Shown here: positions 119 through 42,556 of the stretch, piece by piece
Layout: the number at the start of each line of letters is the position of its first letter
Position numbering within the stretch: the first letter of the stretch is position 1
From: a virus
Reading direction: 5' to 3' (one strand)
IMG/VR virus record: IMGVR_UViG_3300045988_035404
Length of the DNA stretch: 45,145 nucleotides
Translations under genes and position numbers: made by a program
Notes under the pieces: model-generated
The model's input: the letters and a program-made list of their open reading frames with translations, nothing else
Told to the model about the DNA's origin: nothing
Database searches by the model: none

Positions 119-127
119 TGGTATAAT
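119..127 (+). promoter_or_regulatory. Extended -10 promoter TGGTATAAT for the 66-aa gene
   Basis: Exact TGnTATAAT lies 23 nt upstream of the ATG at 150. There is no good -35. Confidence 0.5.
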
Positions 128-149
128 AAAACAAAAAGGAGAAATCGAG

Positions 150-350
150 ATGGATGTTTGTAAACACACGATAGAGATTTATGATGACAAAACCAAAGAT
201 ATAGAAACACTGCTTTTTGCCAATACGAACAGCATAGATACAAGTTGCAATTGGCATTACTCTTGGATGGGACCGAGGTTGAAGTATTGCATGCACTGTG
301 GTAAAAAAATTGTTTACGACACTAAGAAATATGAATACGCGGAAGAATAA
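150..350 (+). CDS. Small Cys-rich (zinc-ribbon-like) protein, 66 aa, stand-alone transcription unit
   Basis: ATG is preceded by an AAAGGAG SD (135-141). The unit has its own promoter and a downstream hairpin plus T-run. Cys at positions 4, 33, 47 and 50 (CxxC). Confidence 0.6.
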   Translation: MDVCKHTIEIYDDKTKDIETLLFANTNSIDTSCNWHYSWMGPRLKYCMHCGKKIVYDTKKYEYAEE

Positions 351-29580: not shown

Positions 29581-30030
29581 TTATTCTTCGCAATAATCTC
29601 CTGAAAATACCAGGCATTCGCCGTTTCTGTAGTTCTCAGCAAACTCTAAAATGGCTAGTTCTCTCATTCGATAATATTCACTTTCAGAATATCCAAGGTC
29701 CATATAGACTTCAATGTTGTATTGCTTTCTGTTTCTGCAATAACACTCTATCAATATCTGGCTGTAATGCCTATCTGATAATGCGTTGATAGCTCTGACA
29801 ATAGCTTGTAAGTCTTGTTCAGCGGCCACCTTGCGTGTTACCATGTTTTCGGTCTGACTATGGACCATGCCGTCGAATGATTTGGGTTCTAACGAGAATG
29901 AAGCTGTCACTTTAGGGGCGTATTCCAAGCCCGCTATCCGTGTTAGCATGCGATACCTTCTTAGCACCTTTATAGCTTTCTTTTTAGTTGCGGTTTTATC
30001 TACTTCCGCAAAGAGATTGATACTTGCCAT
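29581..30030 (-). CDS. arpU: ArpU-family late transcriptional regulator
   Basis: 149 aa upstream of the packaging genes. The sequence pattern (RRYRMLTRIAG...) resembles the ArpU/RinA-type family. Confidence 0.75.
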   Translation of the reverse strand: MASINLFAEVDKTATKKKAIKVLRRYRMLTRIAGLEYAPKVTASFSLEPKSFDGMVHSQTENMVTRKVAAEQDLQAIVRAINALSDRHYSQILIECYCRNRKQYNIEVYMDLGYSESEYYRMRELAILEFAENYRNGECLVFSGDYCEE

Positions 30031-30045
30031 GACACCCCTCTTGTG

Positions 30046-30103
30046 TGATATAATAGTTGTATCGTGTTCAAAGAGTGCCGGCCATTGTGTCGGTCTTTTT
30101 TTT
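30046..30103 (+). ncRNA. Candidate short cis-antisense unit opposite the arpU 5' UTR
   Basis: TGATATAAT at 30046-30054, hairpin at 30078-30093 (CCGGC/GUCGG), T8 at 30096-30103, all on the plus strand. Confidence 0.3.
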
Positions 30104-30398
30104 ATTTTAGCTCAAGAAACGTTAAGAGATTTTATTGAAAAGATAGAATACGTATTTATTCTTGGGGTTGTCTCTTGGGCCTTTTATCACCTCCTTTCTA
30201 GCCAAATGACACCAGCAAGGCCTTTGGCTTTGTTTAGTAATGCAAGATATCAATAAGAAAGAGGGTGTTTCACATCCTTTTTTCTTAAATTTGCTGGGTT
30301 TGTTTGGACAAGGTCTGTCAGCTTGTCCGGTGTTAAAAAAGTGTCCAAGCCACTAAAAATCTATATTCATTTTTTTATTTTTAGTGATGACAGACAAT

Positions 30399-30441
30399 GA
30401 CTGGCAAGAGGAATCGAACCCCTTGAGCAACCATTCCAGCC
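30399..30441 (-). ncRNA. T-arm-like structured element, copy A
   Basis: Minus-strand RNA reads GGCUGG-13 nt-AAGGGG UUCGAUU CCUCUU-CCAGUC. It has a tRNA-like T-loop but no cloverleaf. Confidence 0.35.
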
Positions 30442-30736
30442 TAGATATAGTGAAATCATTATCGGGGATATTCCCCTTTCGTTTTTGAAATAATACAAGA
30501 ATTAAGTCGGATGAATTATGGAGATTTCTGACCTATATCTTTTGCAGGCATACGCCTTGGATAATAACGCTACCAGTAATGCGCTTTAGATTGGTAAACA
30601 AAATAAAAAAGGTTCCTCGATTCTATAACTTATTATTTACTGGATTTTGGTAGCATCCACGACCAGACACGCTTCAGCTTGATTTGAATGAAAAAATAAA
30701 GGATTCCTCTTTTCCGTATATAGATTGACTGGTAAT

Positions 30737-30776
30737 AGCTAGGGAGGGAGTCGAACCCTCGTAAACCGTTCTAGCT
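30737..30776 (-). ncRNA. T-arm-like structured element, copy B
   Basis: Minus-strand RNA reads AGCUAG-10 nt-GAGGG UUCGACU CCCUC-C-CUAGCU. It starts at the stop codon of the 236-aa gene. Confidence 0.35.
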
Positions 30777-31485
30777 ACACGCCTAGAGCGTAGGCTTTAT
30801 ATAAGGCTTTTCTGACCGTAATTTTGTTACGTCCTAACTCGCCCTTGGTCCGATATTCGAGTGTGATGCGGTCAACTTCATCGTCCAATCTCTCGCTCCA
30901 TTCGTAGTTATTGAAGACAAAGTCAATAATTTCACTGAATAGCTCTCTTGAAAGTAGCCCTTCCATTTGGATTGCTTTCAAAGGCGTTAGGGCGGCTTTT
31001 TCCGTATAGCACAGATTGAGGGCGTTTTGGGTTTTGTTAGCACTTTTTTGGTTGCACCCTTTAACCTCTCTGATATAGCTATTTAGGTTGTTAGGGTGTT
31101 CCTTGCGCAGTGCTTCCACTTCCTCTTGGAACTGCTTGAATAGTTCTTCTGGCAGTCCTGCGTTGATTTTATCCAAAACTGGGCGAGTGATTGTGCCTCT
31201 CGTATAGTGTTTAGACAGATAGCTTTGAATATCACTGAATAATTCGTCAGAAATAATGCCATTTAGCTCGCTTGCAGTCTTAGGTGATAGCTTCAATCGT
31301 CCCACGACTACGCTATTGAATTTCTGATAAATATTCCTAGCTTGCGCTTCACTGCACTGTCGCACTTCTTGAAAATACTGTTTATAGGAGCCTTTTTTGT
31401 GTGTTTTTCTCAGTGCCGCATGTTCACTGACTAACCGTTGGTATAATTCCTCGGTCAACCCGGAATATTTGTAGGTTTTACTCAT
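30775..31485 (-). CDS. Hypothetical protein, 236 aa, made of two tandem ~95-aa repeats
   Basis: The ATG at 31485 has an AGAGGAG SD and an ATGA overlap with the upstream gene; the track start at 31563 is rejected. Internal duplication: LTEELYQRL...SDELFSDIQSYL versus LPEELFKQF...SRELFSEIIDFV. Confidence 0.75.
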   Translation of the reverse strand: MSKTYKYSGLTEELYQRLVSEHAALRKTHKKGSYKQYFQEVRQCSEAQARNIYQKFNSVVVGRLKLSPKTASELNGIISDELFSDIQSYLSKHYTRGTITRPVLDKINAGLPEELFKQFQEEVEALRKEHPNNLNSYIREVKGCNQKSANKTQNALNLCYTEKAALTPLKAIQMEGLLSRELFSEIIDFVFNNYEWSERLDDEVDRITLEYRTKGELGRNKITVRKALYKAYALGV

Positions 31486-38248: not shown

Positions 38249-39974
38249 CCTCGCTGTATTTCTTGAATCCGAGAGTCAATGCGGTGATGCCTGTTGCAAT
38301 CACCACCAAGCCTAGAGTTGACATGATGCCTTCTTTTTCGCCAGTGTTTGGCAAAGTAGCGCTGTAAGTAGGTGTATTTACAGCCTCTTTTGGATCAGAA
38401 TCAAAGTTATAAGATACTGTGGTAATTTCCTTTTTGGCTTTCGGAGCGTCTACGGGCTTGCTAGGCGCCTTTTTAGGTGTCGCTGGAATTTCAAGCTCTG
38501 GCAAGTCCAAGATAGGCGCATCGTTTGGAATTACCCCGCCTTCAAACGGTGGGAGTTCTCTTACTTCGGGAATTCCAGGAATGCCACCTTGGAATTCAGG
38601 TTTGTGGTGTACCGGTGCTTCATTTGGTACTGTTCCGCCATTCCATTCTGGCAACTCTCGCACCTCTGGAATACCAGGGATGCCGCCTTGGAATTCTGGG
38701 ATATCTACTTTTGGAGCTTCACGAGGAATTTCAAAAGTTGGTTCCGGTTTGTTTTCACCAGACGCATCACCGCGTCCGCCAACAAGCTGCACTTTAGAGC
38801 TTGATTTAGCCCCAGCGTCTACAGCTACCAACTCAGCCTTGTTTGTTGGGTTGGTACTATCTTTAACCGCTTTCTTAAGTTTAGTTTGGTAATCGATGTA
38901 CAAGATACGGTTAAACTGTTTGAATTTAGCGTCGAAGCCATCAGCTCTAACATTCCAGCTTTCAAGGTAATCCTTAGCTGAAAAGTCAATGCCAGTCCAA
39001 GCAAGTGGGTCTTCAACAAAGTAGATGTTTTGAGAGCCTTCTACAAACTCTTGATTATCAGACCAAGTGTCCTTCAATTTCGCATAATTCAAGACTTGAC
39101 GGGCAGTGTTCAAACGCAAGGTCCAGTTAATGATTTGAGGGTCCTTTTTATTTTGACTGCCCCATTTAGACAGGAGTTCATTGCTTGGAAGTGGGCCTTC
39201 TTCTGCAATAGTGAAGGTTTTAACAGTGCCGTTGAAATTAACTGTCACTGGTTTACCCGGTTCGACAATATCCAACCACTTAGCGTCAAATTTCAAGCTC
39301 ATTTTCTTGTTCAATGGGTTGTTTTGGAAGTAATTGTTAAAAGTGGTTGTGATTTTGCGAGCTTGTGCATCAGCGTTAGCCTTACCAACGATGTTCTCGT
39401 TGTTGTAAACATCGAAGTCAAAGCTGGTCTGCAAACCGATTTCTTTAGGTAGTTCAGTAACTACCTTGTCCCCCTCGTTGATAGCCATATCATTGGGGAA
39501 GTTGATATCTTTGTATTCAACCTTGAAAGGTGAGTATTTGCCGTTGCCGTTAGGGAAGTCTACTTGTACGTTAGGGTTTTCAACATTGATTGTGTCGCCC
39601 TCTTTAGTAACCGTAGTAGGTGCCGCTGGGGTTTCAGCTACTGGTTGAGCTACTTCTGTAGTTGTTACTGGTGCTTCTGTAGCAACAACTGGAGTTTCAG
39701 CAATCGGTTGAGATTCCACTGGAGCTGGCGCCAATGCTTTTGGTGTTTCTACTGGTGCCACTGTTTCGCTAGGTGCCACCGTCACGTTTCCGGCATTATC
39801 AGCCGTATAGACGTTAGACACGGCTAGCTGAGTGTCTGCCACTGGTTGCGTTGTTTCGTCTGCTGACACTGCACCAGCTCCAATCAATAGAGCGATAGCA
39901 AGCGCCAATGTTCCACAAAGCCCGTAGGCTTTAGATACAGTGAATCCTGGTTTTGCAATTGTTTGTGCTTTCAT
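38235..39974 (-). CDS. LPXTG-anchored surface protein, MSCRAMM/collagen-binding-like adhesin
   Basis: The ATG at 39974 has an AAGGAG SD. Signal peptide ends ..LLIGAGAVSADE. It has a Pro/Thr/Ala-rich spacer, a TYTFTDYV-like motif (ITTTFNNYF), two ~33-aa EFQGGIPGIPEVRELP repeats, and LPNTG plus a TM helix plus a charged tail. Confidence 0.85.
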   Translation of the reverse strand: MKAQTIAKPGFTVSKAYGLCGTLALAIALLIGAGAVSADETTQPVADTQLAVSNVYTADNAGNVTVAPSETVAPVETPKALAPAPVESQPIAETPVVATEAPVTTTEVAQPVAETPAAPTTVTKEGDTINVENPNVQVDFPNGNGKYSPFKVEYKDINFPNDMAINEGDKVVTELPKEIGLQTSFDFDVYNNENIVGKANADAQARKITTTFNNYFQNNPLNKKMSLKFDAKWLDIVEPGKPVTVNFNGTVKTFTIAEEGPLPSNELLSKWGSQNKKDPQIINWTLRLNTARQVLNYAKLKDTWSDNQEFVEGSQNIYFVEDPLAWTGIDFSAKDYLESWNVRADGFDAKFKQFNRILYIDYQTKLKKAVKDSTNPTNKAELVAVDAGAKSSSKVQLVGGRGDASGENKPEPTFEIPREAPKVDIPEFQGGIPGIPEVRELPEWNGGTVPNEAPVHHKPEFQGGIPGIPEVRELPPFEGGVIPNDAPILDLPELEIPATPKKAPSKPVDAPKAKKEITTVSYNFDSDPKEAVNTPTYSATLPNTGEKEGIMSTLGLVVIATGITALTLGFKKYSEDEND

Positions 39975-40033
39975 GGTATAATCTCCTTGATAATTAATTT
40001 TGTCTTGCATGGGCCCTAACCCATGCTTTTTTT
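39953..40033 (+). ncRNA. Candidate short cis-antisense unit opposite the adhesin 5' UTR
   Basis: TTGCAA (39953-39958), 18 nt, TGGTATAAT (39974-39982), then the perfect hairpin GCATGGG/CCCATGC (40007-40026) plus T7 (40027-40033). Confidence 0.45.
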
Positions 40034-40330
40034 AGTGCTCTCAACGTGCACCCAATGCCCCATCGTGTCGTCTTTTTCAATGTTTTATTAGACTTTTTGG
40101 GGAAGATTAGGAAAAAAGTAATTTAGTAAAGTTTTTTTGGGGAAAAATTATGGGTATAAGTTACACTCCACGATGAGGCCGTGGCTGCACGCTGAAAAAA
40201 TTGACGTTATTTTATGTACTTGTTCTTGAGTCGTTCGCTCTTTTCCTCTGGCGTTTCCACCCACTCAAAGAACGGCTCTGGTTTCGGTTGTTTCTTTTTG
40301 AAAAGTTTTTCTAGTAGATGTTTCAAATCA

Positions 40331-40471
40331 TCACCCCACTAGCTGATCTAATGGCAATCCGTGGTCGGCGTTAAATTCTCTGACCTTTTCATCAATCATG
40401 CGATGTGGTTTTACTTCGAAAACTTCTACTTCTTCTTGCTTCTTTGACCAAATCCAGTTTAAAAATTTCAT
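40331..40471 (-). CDS. Possible 46-aa early protein, not in the ORF track
   Basis: AAAGGAG SD 8 nt before the ATG. Hand translation gives MKFLNWIWSKKQEEVEVFEVKPHRMIDEKVREFNADHGLPLDQLVG. Confidence 0.5.
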   Translation of the reverse strand: MKFLNWIWSKKQEEVEVFEVKPHRMIDEKVREFNADHGLPLDQLVG

Positions 40472-40504
40472 TGTTGTTTTCTCCTTTGGTTTTTTGATTT
40501 TGTT

Positions 40505-40711
40505 TTAGAATACATGGACACCACGCTCAGCCCATTTGTTACGTAAACGATTTTGAGCGTCCCCGTTATATCCGCAGATATGGAACGCCAAGCCAAAGTT
40601 TTCTTTGCTATGGCGTTTAGCCACAATTTCATCCTCAAAGATTTCGACGAATTTTTTAACTTCGTCTAGGTCTTCGCTGCATGGGTAGAATAACCAGTCG
40701 TTATCTACCAC
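40505..40711 (-). CDS. Hypothetical early protein (N-terminus uncertain)
   Basis: The track start is GTG. The frame is open a further ~36 codons upstream behind an AGAGAGG SD, but with no canonical start codon there. Confidence 0.5.
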   Translation of the reverse strand: MVDNDWLFYPCSEDLDEVKKFVEIFEDEIVAKRHSKENFGLAFHICGYNGDAQNRLRNKWAERGVHVF

Positions 40712-40900
40712 AACGTGCCAGTTGTCACCTAGAACTGTCTGGATTTTCTTATATTCAAATTTAGCCGTTTTGATTACCTCTCTTATTCTTCTGACTACTA
40801 CTGTATTGTTATCAGTTAGTAATTATTTCTAGTTAGTGCCGGTAGGCTCTAGATTGTTGTAAGTTAGTACTTGTTGTATAGTTAGTATTTATTAGTGCCC

Positions 40901-40967
40901 AATTTTACACATTGCAATTTTACACATTGCAATTTTACACATTGCAATTTTACACATTGCAATTTTT
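40901..40967. repeat. Iterons: 15-bp unit AATTTTACACATTGC x4 plus a partial copy; putative origin of replication
   Basis: Four perfect contiguous copies, then an inverted partial copy at 40972-40982. Flanked by GTTAGTA/GTTAGTG repeats (40810-40890). Confidence 0.7.
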
Positions 40968-40981
40968 GGGAAATGTAAAAT

Positions 40982-41344
40982 TTACGTTGTGCTATCTGTG
41001 GATAACTCTTTCTCAAGATGTCCCATCAGATACTCTAGGTAGTTGTCTGTTATAGGAACATCTGAGAAAAATCTGTGTACCTCACTCCCTTTTCCTCTAC
41101 CTAAGCTACGCTTAATCACTCTCATATATCCTGCTTCTTCTAAGATTTTGAAATGGCTATCAACGGTAGTGCGGCTTATGCCTAGCCGTCTTGCGATTTC
41201 ATCAGGATATACAACCCAATCGGGCTTATTGGTCAAGATGACCGTTAAAATGCCTATTGTTGCTGGTTTCAACCGTTTGTCTTGAGTAAAAGCGTTATTG
41301 ATAGATGTGTAATTTTCGTTGGCGTTCCTGATTATGTATTGCAT
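40982..41344 (-). CDS. Winged-helix DNA-binding protein, RepA_N-like replication initiator candidate
   Basis: The pattern NAFTQD..L...IGILTVIL....W..YPDEIARRLGISRTTVDSHFKILEEAGYM...R..GRGKG resembles RepA_N. Iterons lie directly 3' of it. Confidence 0.55.
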   Translation of the reverse strand: MQYIIRNANENYTSINNAFTQDKRLKPATIGILTVILTNKPDWVVYPDEIARRLGISRTTVDSHFKILEEAGYMRVIKRSLGRGKGSEVHRFFSDVPITDNYLEYLMGHLEKELSTDSTT

Positions 41345-41353
41345 ACCTCATAG

Positions 41354-41506
41354 TTAAGCCCCTTCCTGTAGCTTTTCTTTGTGAAAACCTATGATGATGT
41401 CATAGTAAGCGTGGCCGCTTGGAATGACATATTTAGTTAAATCATCAACTCTGGAACCGTCTGCCATAATGTTGATTATGGTGGGTTCCCATTTTTGTTT
41501 TTTCAT
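41354..41506 (-). CDS. Possible 50-aa early protein, not in the ORF track
   Basis: Hand translation gives MKKQKWEPTIINIMADGSRVDDLTKYVIPSGHAYYDIIIGFHKEKLQEGA. The SD is weak. Confidence 0.45.
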   Translation of the reverse strand: MKKQKWEPTIINIMADGSRVDDLTKYVIPSGHAYYDIIIGFHKEKLQEGA

Positions 41507-41568
41507 GGTACAATCTCTTTAGTTTAAATTTTCTATCGGTCTGACTCTGGCAGGGGTCAGCCTTTTTT
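41486..41568 (+). ncRNA. Candidate short cis-antisense unit opposite the early leader
   Basis: TTCCCA (41486-41491), 17 nt, TGGTACAAT (41506-41514), then the hairpin GGTCTGAC/GTCAGCC (41538-41562) plus T6. Confidence 0.4.
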
Positions 41569-41785
41569 GTTGCCTTAACGACACTGGAGAACTAGCGAGG
41601 ACTTTGAATTTATTTATTTTTAGGAGTTTTTATAAATCAAATCGTTTCACGCTAATGGTATTAGTATTGCTTACGCTTCAACAGATATGCCCCGCTAGCT
41701 CACTAGTGCCGTCAAGGTGTCGATTGCAACTGCATTATTTTTATTTAACTTTCGCTTAACTAAAACTTTTGCGGTTGCTTTTTCT

Positions 41786-42019
41786 TTAATGTTTTTGTTG
41801 CGTTTCGGGAACAGTTTGTTTAAAAAAAATACCGATTTCATCCTTACTGTACCCTAGTAAGCCGGCAAGTGTGATAAGTTCGTCAGCGGAAAATGAGATT
41901 TTCCCATTCTCTCTCTTATTATACTGATCGCGAGCCAAACCCATTAGTTCAGCCATTTTCGCTTGAGTATAACCTTTCGCTACTCGTTCAGCTCTCACAC
42001 GAAGCAAATCAACTTTCAT
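41786..42019 (-). CDS. Cro-like XRE-family HTH regulator
   Basis: HTH segment GYTQAKMAELMGLARDQYNKRENG. Divergent from the repressor gene. GGAGG SD. Confidence 0.85.
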   Translation of the reverse strand: MKVDLLRVRAERVAKGYTQAKMAELMGLARDQYNKRENGKISFSADELITLAGLLGYSKDEIGIFFKQTVPETQQKH

Positions 42020-42070
42020 AGATTACCTCCGTTTATTTAGTTTTCATTACTTGTTCCTTAGAACAATTAT

Positions 42071-42099
42071 AGTATACCTAACGCGTTCCCATTTGTCAA
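42071..42099 (-). promoter_or_regulatory. Early lytic promoter TTGACA-17-TATACT
   Basis: -35 at 42099..42094 and -10 at 42076..42071. A GGGAAC operator half-site (42085-42090) lies in the spacer. Confidence 0.65.
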
Positions 42100-42145
42100 C
42101 GATAGAATAAAAAAAATATGAAAAAAGTTTATTTCTGGGAACACC

Positions 42146-42174
42146 TTGTTTATTTTCGGGAACTGTTGTATAAT
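42146..42174 (+). promoter_or_regulatory. Repressor promoter TTGTTT-17-TATAAT
   Basis: -35 at 42146-42151 and -10 at 42169-42174. GGGAAC sites lie at 42137-42142 and 42158-42163. Confidence 0.6.
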
Positions 42175-42205
42175 GTTCTTACTATTAAGTAAAAGGAAAA
42201 AGCGC

Positions 42206-42556
42206 ATGAGAAACAACGAGGAAATTATTTTACTAATAAAAAGCTATTTAGATAATAGTTCTATGTCGATGTCTGAATTAGCTGCAAAAGCGGGGGTTTC
42301 AAAATCGACTTTATCAAGATATCTTTCTGGCAGTCGGGTGTTCCCGCTGAATAAAGCGGATGATTTCGCTAGTGCTCTAGGTTTGACAACGGAACAATTT
42401 TTGAATGTAACACCTAGCCCGACAGATACTGCTTCAACCGACATCGATAACATTATAGAAAACGCTATGATGTTCGATGGTAAACCACTGACTAGTGATG
42501 ATAAACGTGCCATTCGTGGCATAATCGCCGGTTACATGAATAGCAAGGAGAATTGA
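42206..42556 (+). CDS. Phage repressor, XRE HTH (ImmR-like, no S24 peptidase domain)
   Basis: The ATG at 42206 has an AAGGAAA SD; the track TTG extension is rejected. HTH segment MSELAAKAGVSKSTLSRYLSG. Confidence 0.85.
   Translation: MRNNEEIILLIKSYLDNSSMSMSELAAKAGVSKSTLSRYLSGSRVFPLNKADDFASALGLTTEQFLNVTPSPTDTASTDIDNIIENAMMFDGKPLTSDDKRAIRGIIAGYMNSKEN

Follow-up and report, generated by a model that had tools for sequence, protein, structure and literature searches.

A promoter and a terminator opposite the start of an adhesin gene

The DNA analysed here, which we call the window, is the whole 45,145-nucleotide (nt) stretch of IMG/VR virus record IMGVR_UViG_3300045988_035404, and belongs to a temperate siphophage or prophage of a salivarius-group Streptococcus. 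Its minus strand carries the lytic genes, with a promoter upstream of them at 42099-42071, and its plus strand carries a cI-like repressor and a serine integrase. One of the minus-strand genes encodes an LPXTG-anchored surface protein (adhesin). Across the start of this gene, on the plus strand, lie a -35-like hexamer, an extended -10 element and an intrinsic terminator, which together we call unit 1 (Table 1). A preliminary description of the locus had read them as the signals for an antisense RNA of about 45 nt, and our analysis found TTGCAA, the 18-nt spacer, the -10 element, the hairpin and the T7 run exactly where it had placed them.

The -10 element of unit 1 is of the extended type used by sigma-A and sigma-70, with a TG one base before a near-TATAAT hexamer; in a promoter scan the whole site scored 10/12 with the TG, and the -10 itself matches 6/6. 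As the preliminary description had noted, this element overlaps the start codon of the adhesin gene: T39974 is common to the extended -10 and to the minus-strand start codon (CAT on the plus strand, 39972-39974). The complement of the Shine-Dalgarno (SD) sequence, CTCCTT, occupies plus-strand positions 39984-39989. Relatives with other N-terminal coding sequences carry other TTGnnn hexamers (TTGAGT, TTGTGA) at a spacing of 17-18 nt, and the -35-like hexamer is probably dispensable beside the extended -10. Further downstream, the hairpin GCATGGG-CCCTAA-CCCATGC (40007-40026) followed by T7 (40027-40033) has the G-C-rich stem, the short loop and the directly adjoining 3′ U-tract of at least six residues that characterize an intrinsic terminator. 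Among the open reading frames (ORFs) of the window, no credible one on the plus strand lies upstream of this terminator for it to serve, in agreement with the preliminary description. From these signals we infer an RNA that would start at 39989/39990, 7 nt after the -10. Its predicted fold has an energy of -14.9 kcal/mol (z = -4.6) and contains the hairpin as expected, and the sense leader between hairpin and SD is predicted to be unpaired.

The 17-mer TTTCATGGTAYAATCTC, which contains the core of this promoter, occurs exactly twice in the window, at 39969 and 41501, and shuffled sequences gave 0.17 matches to it with 3 mismatches allowed. TGNTAYAAT sites are found nine times, six of them on the plus strand, against an expectation of 3.9 +/- 2.1. 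Of the 11 plus-strand terminator-like sites, exactly 3 are preceded by a TGNTAYAAT-type element, at 22, 24 and 26 nt, and a rough estimate of the number of -10/terminator pairs expected by chance at such spacing is ~0.03. The observation made at unit 1 is far beyond chance, and chance is excluded as its explanation.

Table 1. Positions of the promoter-terminator units and of the features next to unit 1 (window coordinates)
Feature	Position	Strand	Remarks
Unit 1, -35-like hexamer TTGCAA	39953..39958	+	within sense codons 6-7; 18-nt spacer to -10
Unit 1, extended -10 TGGTATAAT (hexamer 39977-39982)	39974..39982	+	first T complements A of sense start codon
Unit 1, intrinsic terminator: 7-bp stem (5 G-C), 6-nt loop, T7	40007..40033	+	24-nt spacer after -10
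Predicted unit 1 RNA, ~45 nt: 18-nt A/U-rich 5′ tail, terminator hairpin, U7	39989..40033	+	from fold
Unit 2: TTCCCA 41486-41491, 17 nt, TGGTACAAT 41506-41514, hairpin 41541-41560, T6 41563-41568	41486..41568	+	
Unit 3: TGTGATATAAT 30044-30054, 22 nt, hairpin 30077-30094, T8 30096-30103	30044..30103	+	
Sense-strand structured RNA element: long-range ~22-bp stem, two helices	40038..40198	-	RNAalifold
LPXTG-anchored surface protein (adhesin), 579 amino acids	38235..39974	-	first gene downstream of unit 1; Pfam and LPNTG motif
Adhesin translation start: SD AAGGAG 39989-39984, 9-nt spacer, ATG 39974-39972	39972..39989	-	homologous start annotated in phage SA-TP2

Conservation of the unit 1 promoter

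Homologs of unit 1 were collected with a pattern placed outside both the promoter and the hairpin, so that the conservation of these two elements is not an artefact of the search. It retrieved 119 IMG/VR loci. In 104 of 109 distinct homologous sequences, among them dairy phages of S. thermophilus that lack the adhesin, TGnTA...T is found 18-24 nt upstream of the hairpin. The anchor pattern fixed T-12, A-11 and T-7, and the invariance of these positions in the anchored sequences is hence by construction; the match of 104 of the 109 loci to the extended -10 pattern at the right distance is independent of this anchor. Regarding the free positions, -10 and -9 are conserved in 66/68 and 67/68 sequences, and position -8 (A43/C20/T5) and the n of TGn (G55/A12/T1) vary. 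At these free positions, the variation resembles that expected of a promoter -10 element rather than that of a merely AT-rich spacer.

The 18-24 nt that separate the -10 from the hairpin, and that would form the tail of the RNA, vary freely among homologs, as is expected for a cis-antisense RNA. The coding flank is variable too, with 24 different N-terminal hexapeptides. Furthermore, TGnTATAAT is retained in homologs in which the start codon (CAT) has shifted by 3-4 nt (SVep1, L080), and the -10 hexamer is retained in remnant ORFs that have no SD (L045, L117, L122).

Covariation and strand bias in the unit 1 terminator

The stem of the hairpin exists in 16 distinct variants among the homologs, with compensatory double changes at three pairs (for example GCATGGG/CCCATGC versus GCACAGG/CCTGTGC and ACACGGG/CCCGTGT). 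When the variants are read as plus-strand RNA, 98.2% of the cells pair, with 7 G·U and 2 non-pairs, the latter located at the terminal pair and at the loop-closing pair. When they are read as minus-strand RNA, 93.8% of the cells pair, with 2 G·U and 7 non-pairs. The double changes and the G·U bias, together with the folds of the two further units described below, point to selection at the RNA level on the plus-strand stem. Every homolog that has the hairpin also has the T6-8 run, invariably 3′ of it on the plus strand, and nothing U-rich follows the unit 1 hairpin on the sense strand. In two IMG/VR loci (L011 and L027) the hairpin is the exact reverse complement, with the loop flipped (GCATGGGTTAGGGCCCATGC, plus strand) and the T-run in place, which looks like an inversion between the stem arms.

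Two further units of the same kind

Two more plus-strand units, units 2 and 3, combine an extended -10 with a terminator (Table 1). Unit 2 is located at the second occurrence of the 17-mer. Its TG overlaps the start codon (CAT, 41504-41506) of a 50-amino-acid gene (41354-41506), and its predicted RNA would span ~41521-41568. It is conserved in ~18 loci, in which the n of TGnTATAAT is G, A, C or T, and in one of them (L114) the element is retained although the CAT has shifted. Its hairpin contains two G·U pairs that form on the plus strand only, giving -14.1 kcal/mol for the plus RNA versus -8.4 for the complement. In both units the start codon provides the TG of TGnTATAAT, and the complement of the SD follows. 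The preliminary description had taken the repeated 17-nt core for a cassette used twice. The repeat itself is confirmed, but the two units are not copies of one another: most unit 2 homologs differ from unit 1 outside CATGnTATAAT, and duplication was rejected. Outside the subtype of the window, unit 2 reads CATGATATAATTACCTTGATTTC..., each unit has its own conserved terminator and only the design is common to both. The 17-nt identity within the window thus reflects a shared design, with no copied cassette, and, on comparison of the homologs, unit 2 stands as an independently conserved unit of the unit 1 design.

Unit 3, which was absent from the preliminary description, precedes, in the sense direction, the SD of a late transcriptional activator gene (29581-30030, minus strand). 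The product of this gene matches phrog_248 (transcriptional activator, 2e-43), and is annotated as ArpU-type in phage TP-J34. The predicted RNA would cover ~30061-30103. From the -10 onward, unit 3 matches 86 Streptococcus phage records, and in the six homologs and phage 2972 that were compared TGnTATAAT is invariant and its flanks are variable. The hairpin forms on the plus RNA only, and that of unit 2 is poor on the sense RNA. The -10 of unit 3 overlaps neither a start codon nor an SD, and conservation of a translation start therefore cannot explain this unit.

The region next to unit 3 (30104-30775) is unusually long for a noncoding one (~670 bp) and contains several stem-loops. Two sense-strand hairpins in it, at 30407-30423 and 30744-30761, resemble the T-arm of tRNA, and ARAGORN found no tRNA in the region of these hairpins. 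Six stem-loops are annotated, with no comment, in the homologous part of the TP-J34 record, and the TP-J34 paper does not discuss them.

A long sense-strand stem beside unit 1

A second structured element, also new with respect to the preliminary description, adjoins unit 1 on the sense strand. It is a long-range stem that, in the sense direction, immediately precedes the A7 run and the unit 1 hairpin, at a distance of 4 nt plus A7 from the hairpin, and it encloses a variable A/U-rich interior of 111-136 nt. RNAalifold supports 22 pairs, 11 of them with compensatory double changes and many with G·U pairs on the sense strand. Wobble variants of the outer helix favour the sense strand 7:1, and the alifold energy is -32 kcal/mol for the sense versus -11 for the antisense strand. 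We conjecture that this stem is a processing site of the RNase III type. A search of the window against Rfam 15, including its countertranscript RNA families and phage small RNAs, gave no match at gathering score anywhere, and only noise at permissive E values (E <= 10 in 39000-42500; E <= 5 in 29900-30900). The variable interior contains a direct repeat, TTTTTGGGGAA(G/A)A..TTA, present twice at 40093-40146 (plus strand), which is restricted to the subgroup of homologs of the window type.

A noncoding module in front of varied genes

At the DNA level the window is related to the S. salivarius phages SA-TP2, YMC-2011 and the Javan phages, and to Moineauvirus and Brussowvirus of S. thermophilus. 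In salivarius-group phages, unit 1 forms the end of a conserved noncoding module of ~250 bp, and between the start codon and ~40200 the noncoding sequence is better conserved than the genes on either side. In relatives the module stands in front of other LPXTG alleles, a gene annotated as sialidase, or the first gene of the S. thermophilus replication module. Hence the tie to the adhesin gene made by the preliminary description does not hold: what follows unit 1 varies among relatives. Searching the flanking pattern in 185,579 species genomes gave 73 matches, of which 2 were in Streptococcus and the rest were due to chance, indicating that the element is confined to salivarius-group phages.

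In phage 2972 the conserved start opens an ORF of only 14 codons, MKTFKITTIREGRN, the DNA of which matches the start of the S. salivarius-type LPXTG gene (MKTSKITT...). The element has therefore been retained in the dairy phages, in which the adhesin is lost. The same remnant, MKTFKITTIREGRN, is all that is left in the S. thermophilus phages 2972 (L128:4905-4966), P7954 and MM25 (L003, L002), and its stop codon shares bases with the SD region of the gene that opens the replication module. A replication origin was considered for the conserved noncoding block and rejected, because the replication modules that follow the block are unrelated to one another (ERF-type in the window, replisome organiser/DnaC in SA-TP2, Gam/Sak4/helicase in 2972 and MM25) and because the G·U wobbles of the long stem point to RNA.

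Regarding the adhesin itself, the longest minus-strand ORF has a nominal start at 40010, and the start backed by an SD is the ATG at 39974, which gives the 579-amino-acid product. This product has a signal peptide, Collagen_bind (8e-11) and Big_8 (4e-10) Pfam domains and an LPNTG anchor, and its homologs are annotated as LPXTG proteins. Neither a promoter scan nor inspection by eye found a sense-strand sigma-A promoter for the gene in 40034-40330, and for this reason the adhesin could not be shown to be an independently expressed moron.

Comparison with known antisense systems

The closest parallel to the predicted unit 1 RNA is RNAII of the streptococcal plasmid pMV158, a 48-nt RNA with a 17-nt tail, an 8-bp stem, a 6-nt loop and U8, which is wholly complementary to the mRNA directly upstream of the repB translation signals and which inhibits translation through its 5′ tail (PMC4485353). 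The predicted unit 1 RNA, with 45 nt, an 18-nt tail, a 7-bp stem, a 6-nt loop and U7, ends by the SD in the same way, so that architecture and placement are almost identical to those of RNAII and both elements are streptococcal. Like RNAII, it would be an RNA of about 50 nt consisting of a 5′ tail and a single terminator hairpin and complementary to a leader. In contrast, the two share no sequence homology, no countertranscript family of Rfam matches, and unit 1 belongs to a phage and not to a plasmid. Also different from pMV158 are the fusion of the -10 and its TG to the start codon of the target and the presence of three units per phage genome, before different kinds of genes.

Among phages, sar of P22 is antisense to the ribosome-binding site of ant, and oop of lambda to the 3′ end of cII. 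Both are short RNAs (~68-77 nt) that are made from constitutive promoters on the opposite strand of early or immunity operons, end at intrinsic terminators and damp a lytic or anti-repressor gene. They differ from unit 1 in their enteric hosts and in the lack of homology, and the unit 1 RNA would be shorter and would abut the SD without covering it. Lambda P_RE is an antisense promoter too, located in the translation start region of cII, directed against lytic transcription and on the strand of the repressor gene. P_RE is, however, activator-dependent and reads through cro into cI, whereas the units described here are activator-independent in form and have strong terminators within 22-26 nt. 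Finally, T4-type phages reportedly carry promoter/stem-loop cassettes at gene boundaries, on the coding strand, that drive the next gene. The units resemble them as short conserved promoter-plus-hairpin blocks at junctions with variable downstream genes, but lie on the opposite strand and would yield only an RNA of ~45 nt.

Proposed function and alternative explanations

The conservation of promoter and terminator in more than 100 related Streptococcus phages argues that unit 1 probably produces an antisense RNA of ~45 nt that damps the adjacent gene. In our reading, plus-strand positions 39953-40033 would be a complete, tiny transcription unit served by the host sigma-A, giving a countertranscript of ~45 nt, one of three in the phage; we consider this assignment about evenly poised between right and wrong. 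The extended -10, with its TG built into the opposing start codon, would drive the RNA, its own intrinsic terminator would end it, and the product would be a countertranscript of the lytic minus-strand operon. Its complementarity to the sense leader would be complete, beginning at the base that adjoins the SD and reaching back through the mirrored hairpin. The 18-nt tail could pair with the single-stranded A/U-rich stretch directly upstream of the SD, pairing could extend into the hairpin, and the duplex may block 30S binding, become a substrate of RNase III, or both. The head-on promoter may additionally interfere with incoming RNA polymerase. Unit 2 would target a small early gene, unit 1 the adhesin together with the recombination/replication block, and unit 3 the late activator. 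Made constitutively by the host polymerase, the units could damp leaky expression or time lytic checkpoints. All three lie on the strand that carries cI and the integrase and have promoters of activator-independent form, and they could be made in the lysogen. The core of the preliminary description, an antisense RNA of ~45 nt next to the SD, is thus favoured by the variation within the -10, by the conservation, by the double changes in the stem and by the strand bias of its G·U pairs, but it was drawn too narrowly.

Several observations weigh against this reading. The TG coincides with the start codon in 103 of the 109 loci, and most of the conservation of the unit 1 -10 is therefore inseparable from that of the translation start. 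The strand bias of the unit 1 stem is modest when taken alone (7:2). The predicted unit 1 RNA ends short of the SD itself, which leaves translational inhibition to be inferred. The five exceptions to the 104 conserved loci are mostly virulent S. thermophilus phages: in phage 2972 the tail is deleted and the -10 is only ~7 nt from the hairpin, and four others, mostly from S. thermophilus, have no -10 or no hairpin. The unit is hence dispensable in some virulent phages. Lastly, the accessible RNA-seq papers on phage 2972 mention antisense RNA at ORF37/38 only and none at unit 1, and no matching promoter-terminator unit is present at ORF37/38 of 2972.

If promoter and terminator are real, the RNA could still be a by-product. 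The head-on promoter would then throttle read-through of the early operon as a sitting duck, by collision or as a roadblock, with the terminator confining antisense transcription; or else the RNA would act on a trans target in the host. Phage 2972, which lost the tail but kept the -10 and the hairpin, fits this explanation, and so do the unit 3 RNA, which falls short of the SD, the unconstrained sequence of the tail and the fact that all three units face incoming lytic transcription. Yet the variability of the tail is also an argument against a conserved seed that acts in trans, and trans targets within the phage itself were rejected, since complementarity elsewhere in the window is limited to matches of 10-12 nt, near the chance level. 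Moreover, an architecture like that of RNAII, a proven pairing regulator, favours an effect mediated by the RNA, and interference and pairing are compatible with each other. We regard a by-product as unlikely but by no means negligible. A different explanation dispenses with a functional antisense RNA: GGTATAAT would be conserved as the spacer between SD and ATG, and the hairpin and T-run would insulate the upstream early genes from stray antisense transcription. AT-rich spacers are usual in low-GC Gram-positive bacteria, and the position of the TG at the start codon in nearly all loci, with the SD complement directly after the -10, confounds the spacer and promoter readings for most unit 1 and unit 2 sequences. 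Of the ~60 minus-strand genes of the window, however, only the two that have an antisense terminator have this spacer; TGnTATAAT outlasts shifts of the start codon and loss of the SD; its variation resembles that of a -10 hexamer; and unit 3 joins the same extended -10 to a terminator without overlapping either translation signal. Conservation as a spacer is therefore improbable in our view.

The hairpin might also act on the sense mRNA, as a 5′ stabiliser after processing of the long stem or as a protein-binding site, in which case the plus-strand promoter and terminator would be only apparent. The strongly covarying sense stem just 4 nt plus A7 upstream of the hairpin, and the near-equal stability of the unit 1 hairpin on the two strands (-14.9 versus -13.9 kcal/mol), are in line with such a role. 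Nevertheless, the interior G·U variants of the unit 1 stem fit the plus strand only, on the sense RNA units 2 and 3 form a poor hairpin or none, and the invariant T6-8 run would have no role on the sense strand, which makes this explanation quite improbable. Finally, the conserved block could be mainly a recombination linker at a module boundary, as in T4-type cassettes, kept for the exchange of downstream genes. Indeed, the ~250-bp module stands before many genes and adhesin alleles, and homology ends at the start codon or ~20 nt past it. A linker leaves the compensatory changes, the strand-specific wobbles and the promoter-like variation unexplained, and is compatible with a countertranscript, so that it is no true alternative to it; as the main reason for conservation we consider it very improbable.

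Extending the countertranscript reading to the whole group, phages of salivarius-group streptococci, including the dairy phages of S. thermophilus, might possess an unrecognised layer of RNA control. In it, at least three constitutive sigma-A countertranscripts of ~45 nt, their promoters fused to or adjoining the starts of checkpoint genes (the early gene, the replication/adhesin block and the ArpU-type late activator), together with the long stem of RNase III type, would silence the prophage and time the lytic cascade. This wider picture is tentative, and we think it rather unlikely to hold in full. The records that we inspected have no annotation for the three units or for the structured RNA beside unit 1, none of these is in Rfam, and we found no prior description of the units in the searchable literature. 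Judging from the sequences, they are apparently an undescribed addition to the class of cis-antisense countertranscripts, conserved across a well-studied phage family. Few phages have been sequenced as intensively as those of S. thermophilus, which are also economically important, and in the records inspected the units have nonetheless escaped annotation. If the RNAs exist, they would provide post-transcriptional control at three decision points, namely the early genes, the replication/adhesin block and the late activator, with a design principle in which the TG of an antisense promoter is built into the start codon of its target. The element would also tie phage regulation to the sortase-anchored adhesin cassette of S. 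salivarius phages that was lost in the dairy lineage. Type III CRISPR immunity, which senses RNA, would find natural targets in such RNAs, and they could offer compact regulatory parts for streptococcal engineering.

Related signals elsewhere in the window

The extended -10 of unit 1 is found in other settings as well. At the left end of the window, positions 119-160 (plus strand) carry TGGTATAAT with AAGGAG and ATG after it and no clear -35 before it. Such an arrangement resembles a usual extended -10 promoter for a plus-strand gene, and suggests that the promoter format is in normal use in the organism. On the minus strand, at 1620-1800, two tandem mini transcription units lie just past the lysin terminator (1796-1770). 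The one has TGGTATAAT at 1763-1755, then a hairpin and T7, and the other has TGCTATAAT at 1698-1690, then a hairpin and T6. No feature is annotated at the counterpart of 1620-1800 among the 15 matches listed, and the 310-bp stretch around these positions matches 332 Streptococcus phage records.

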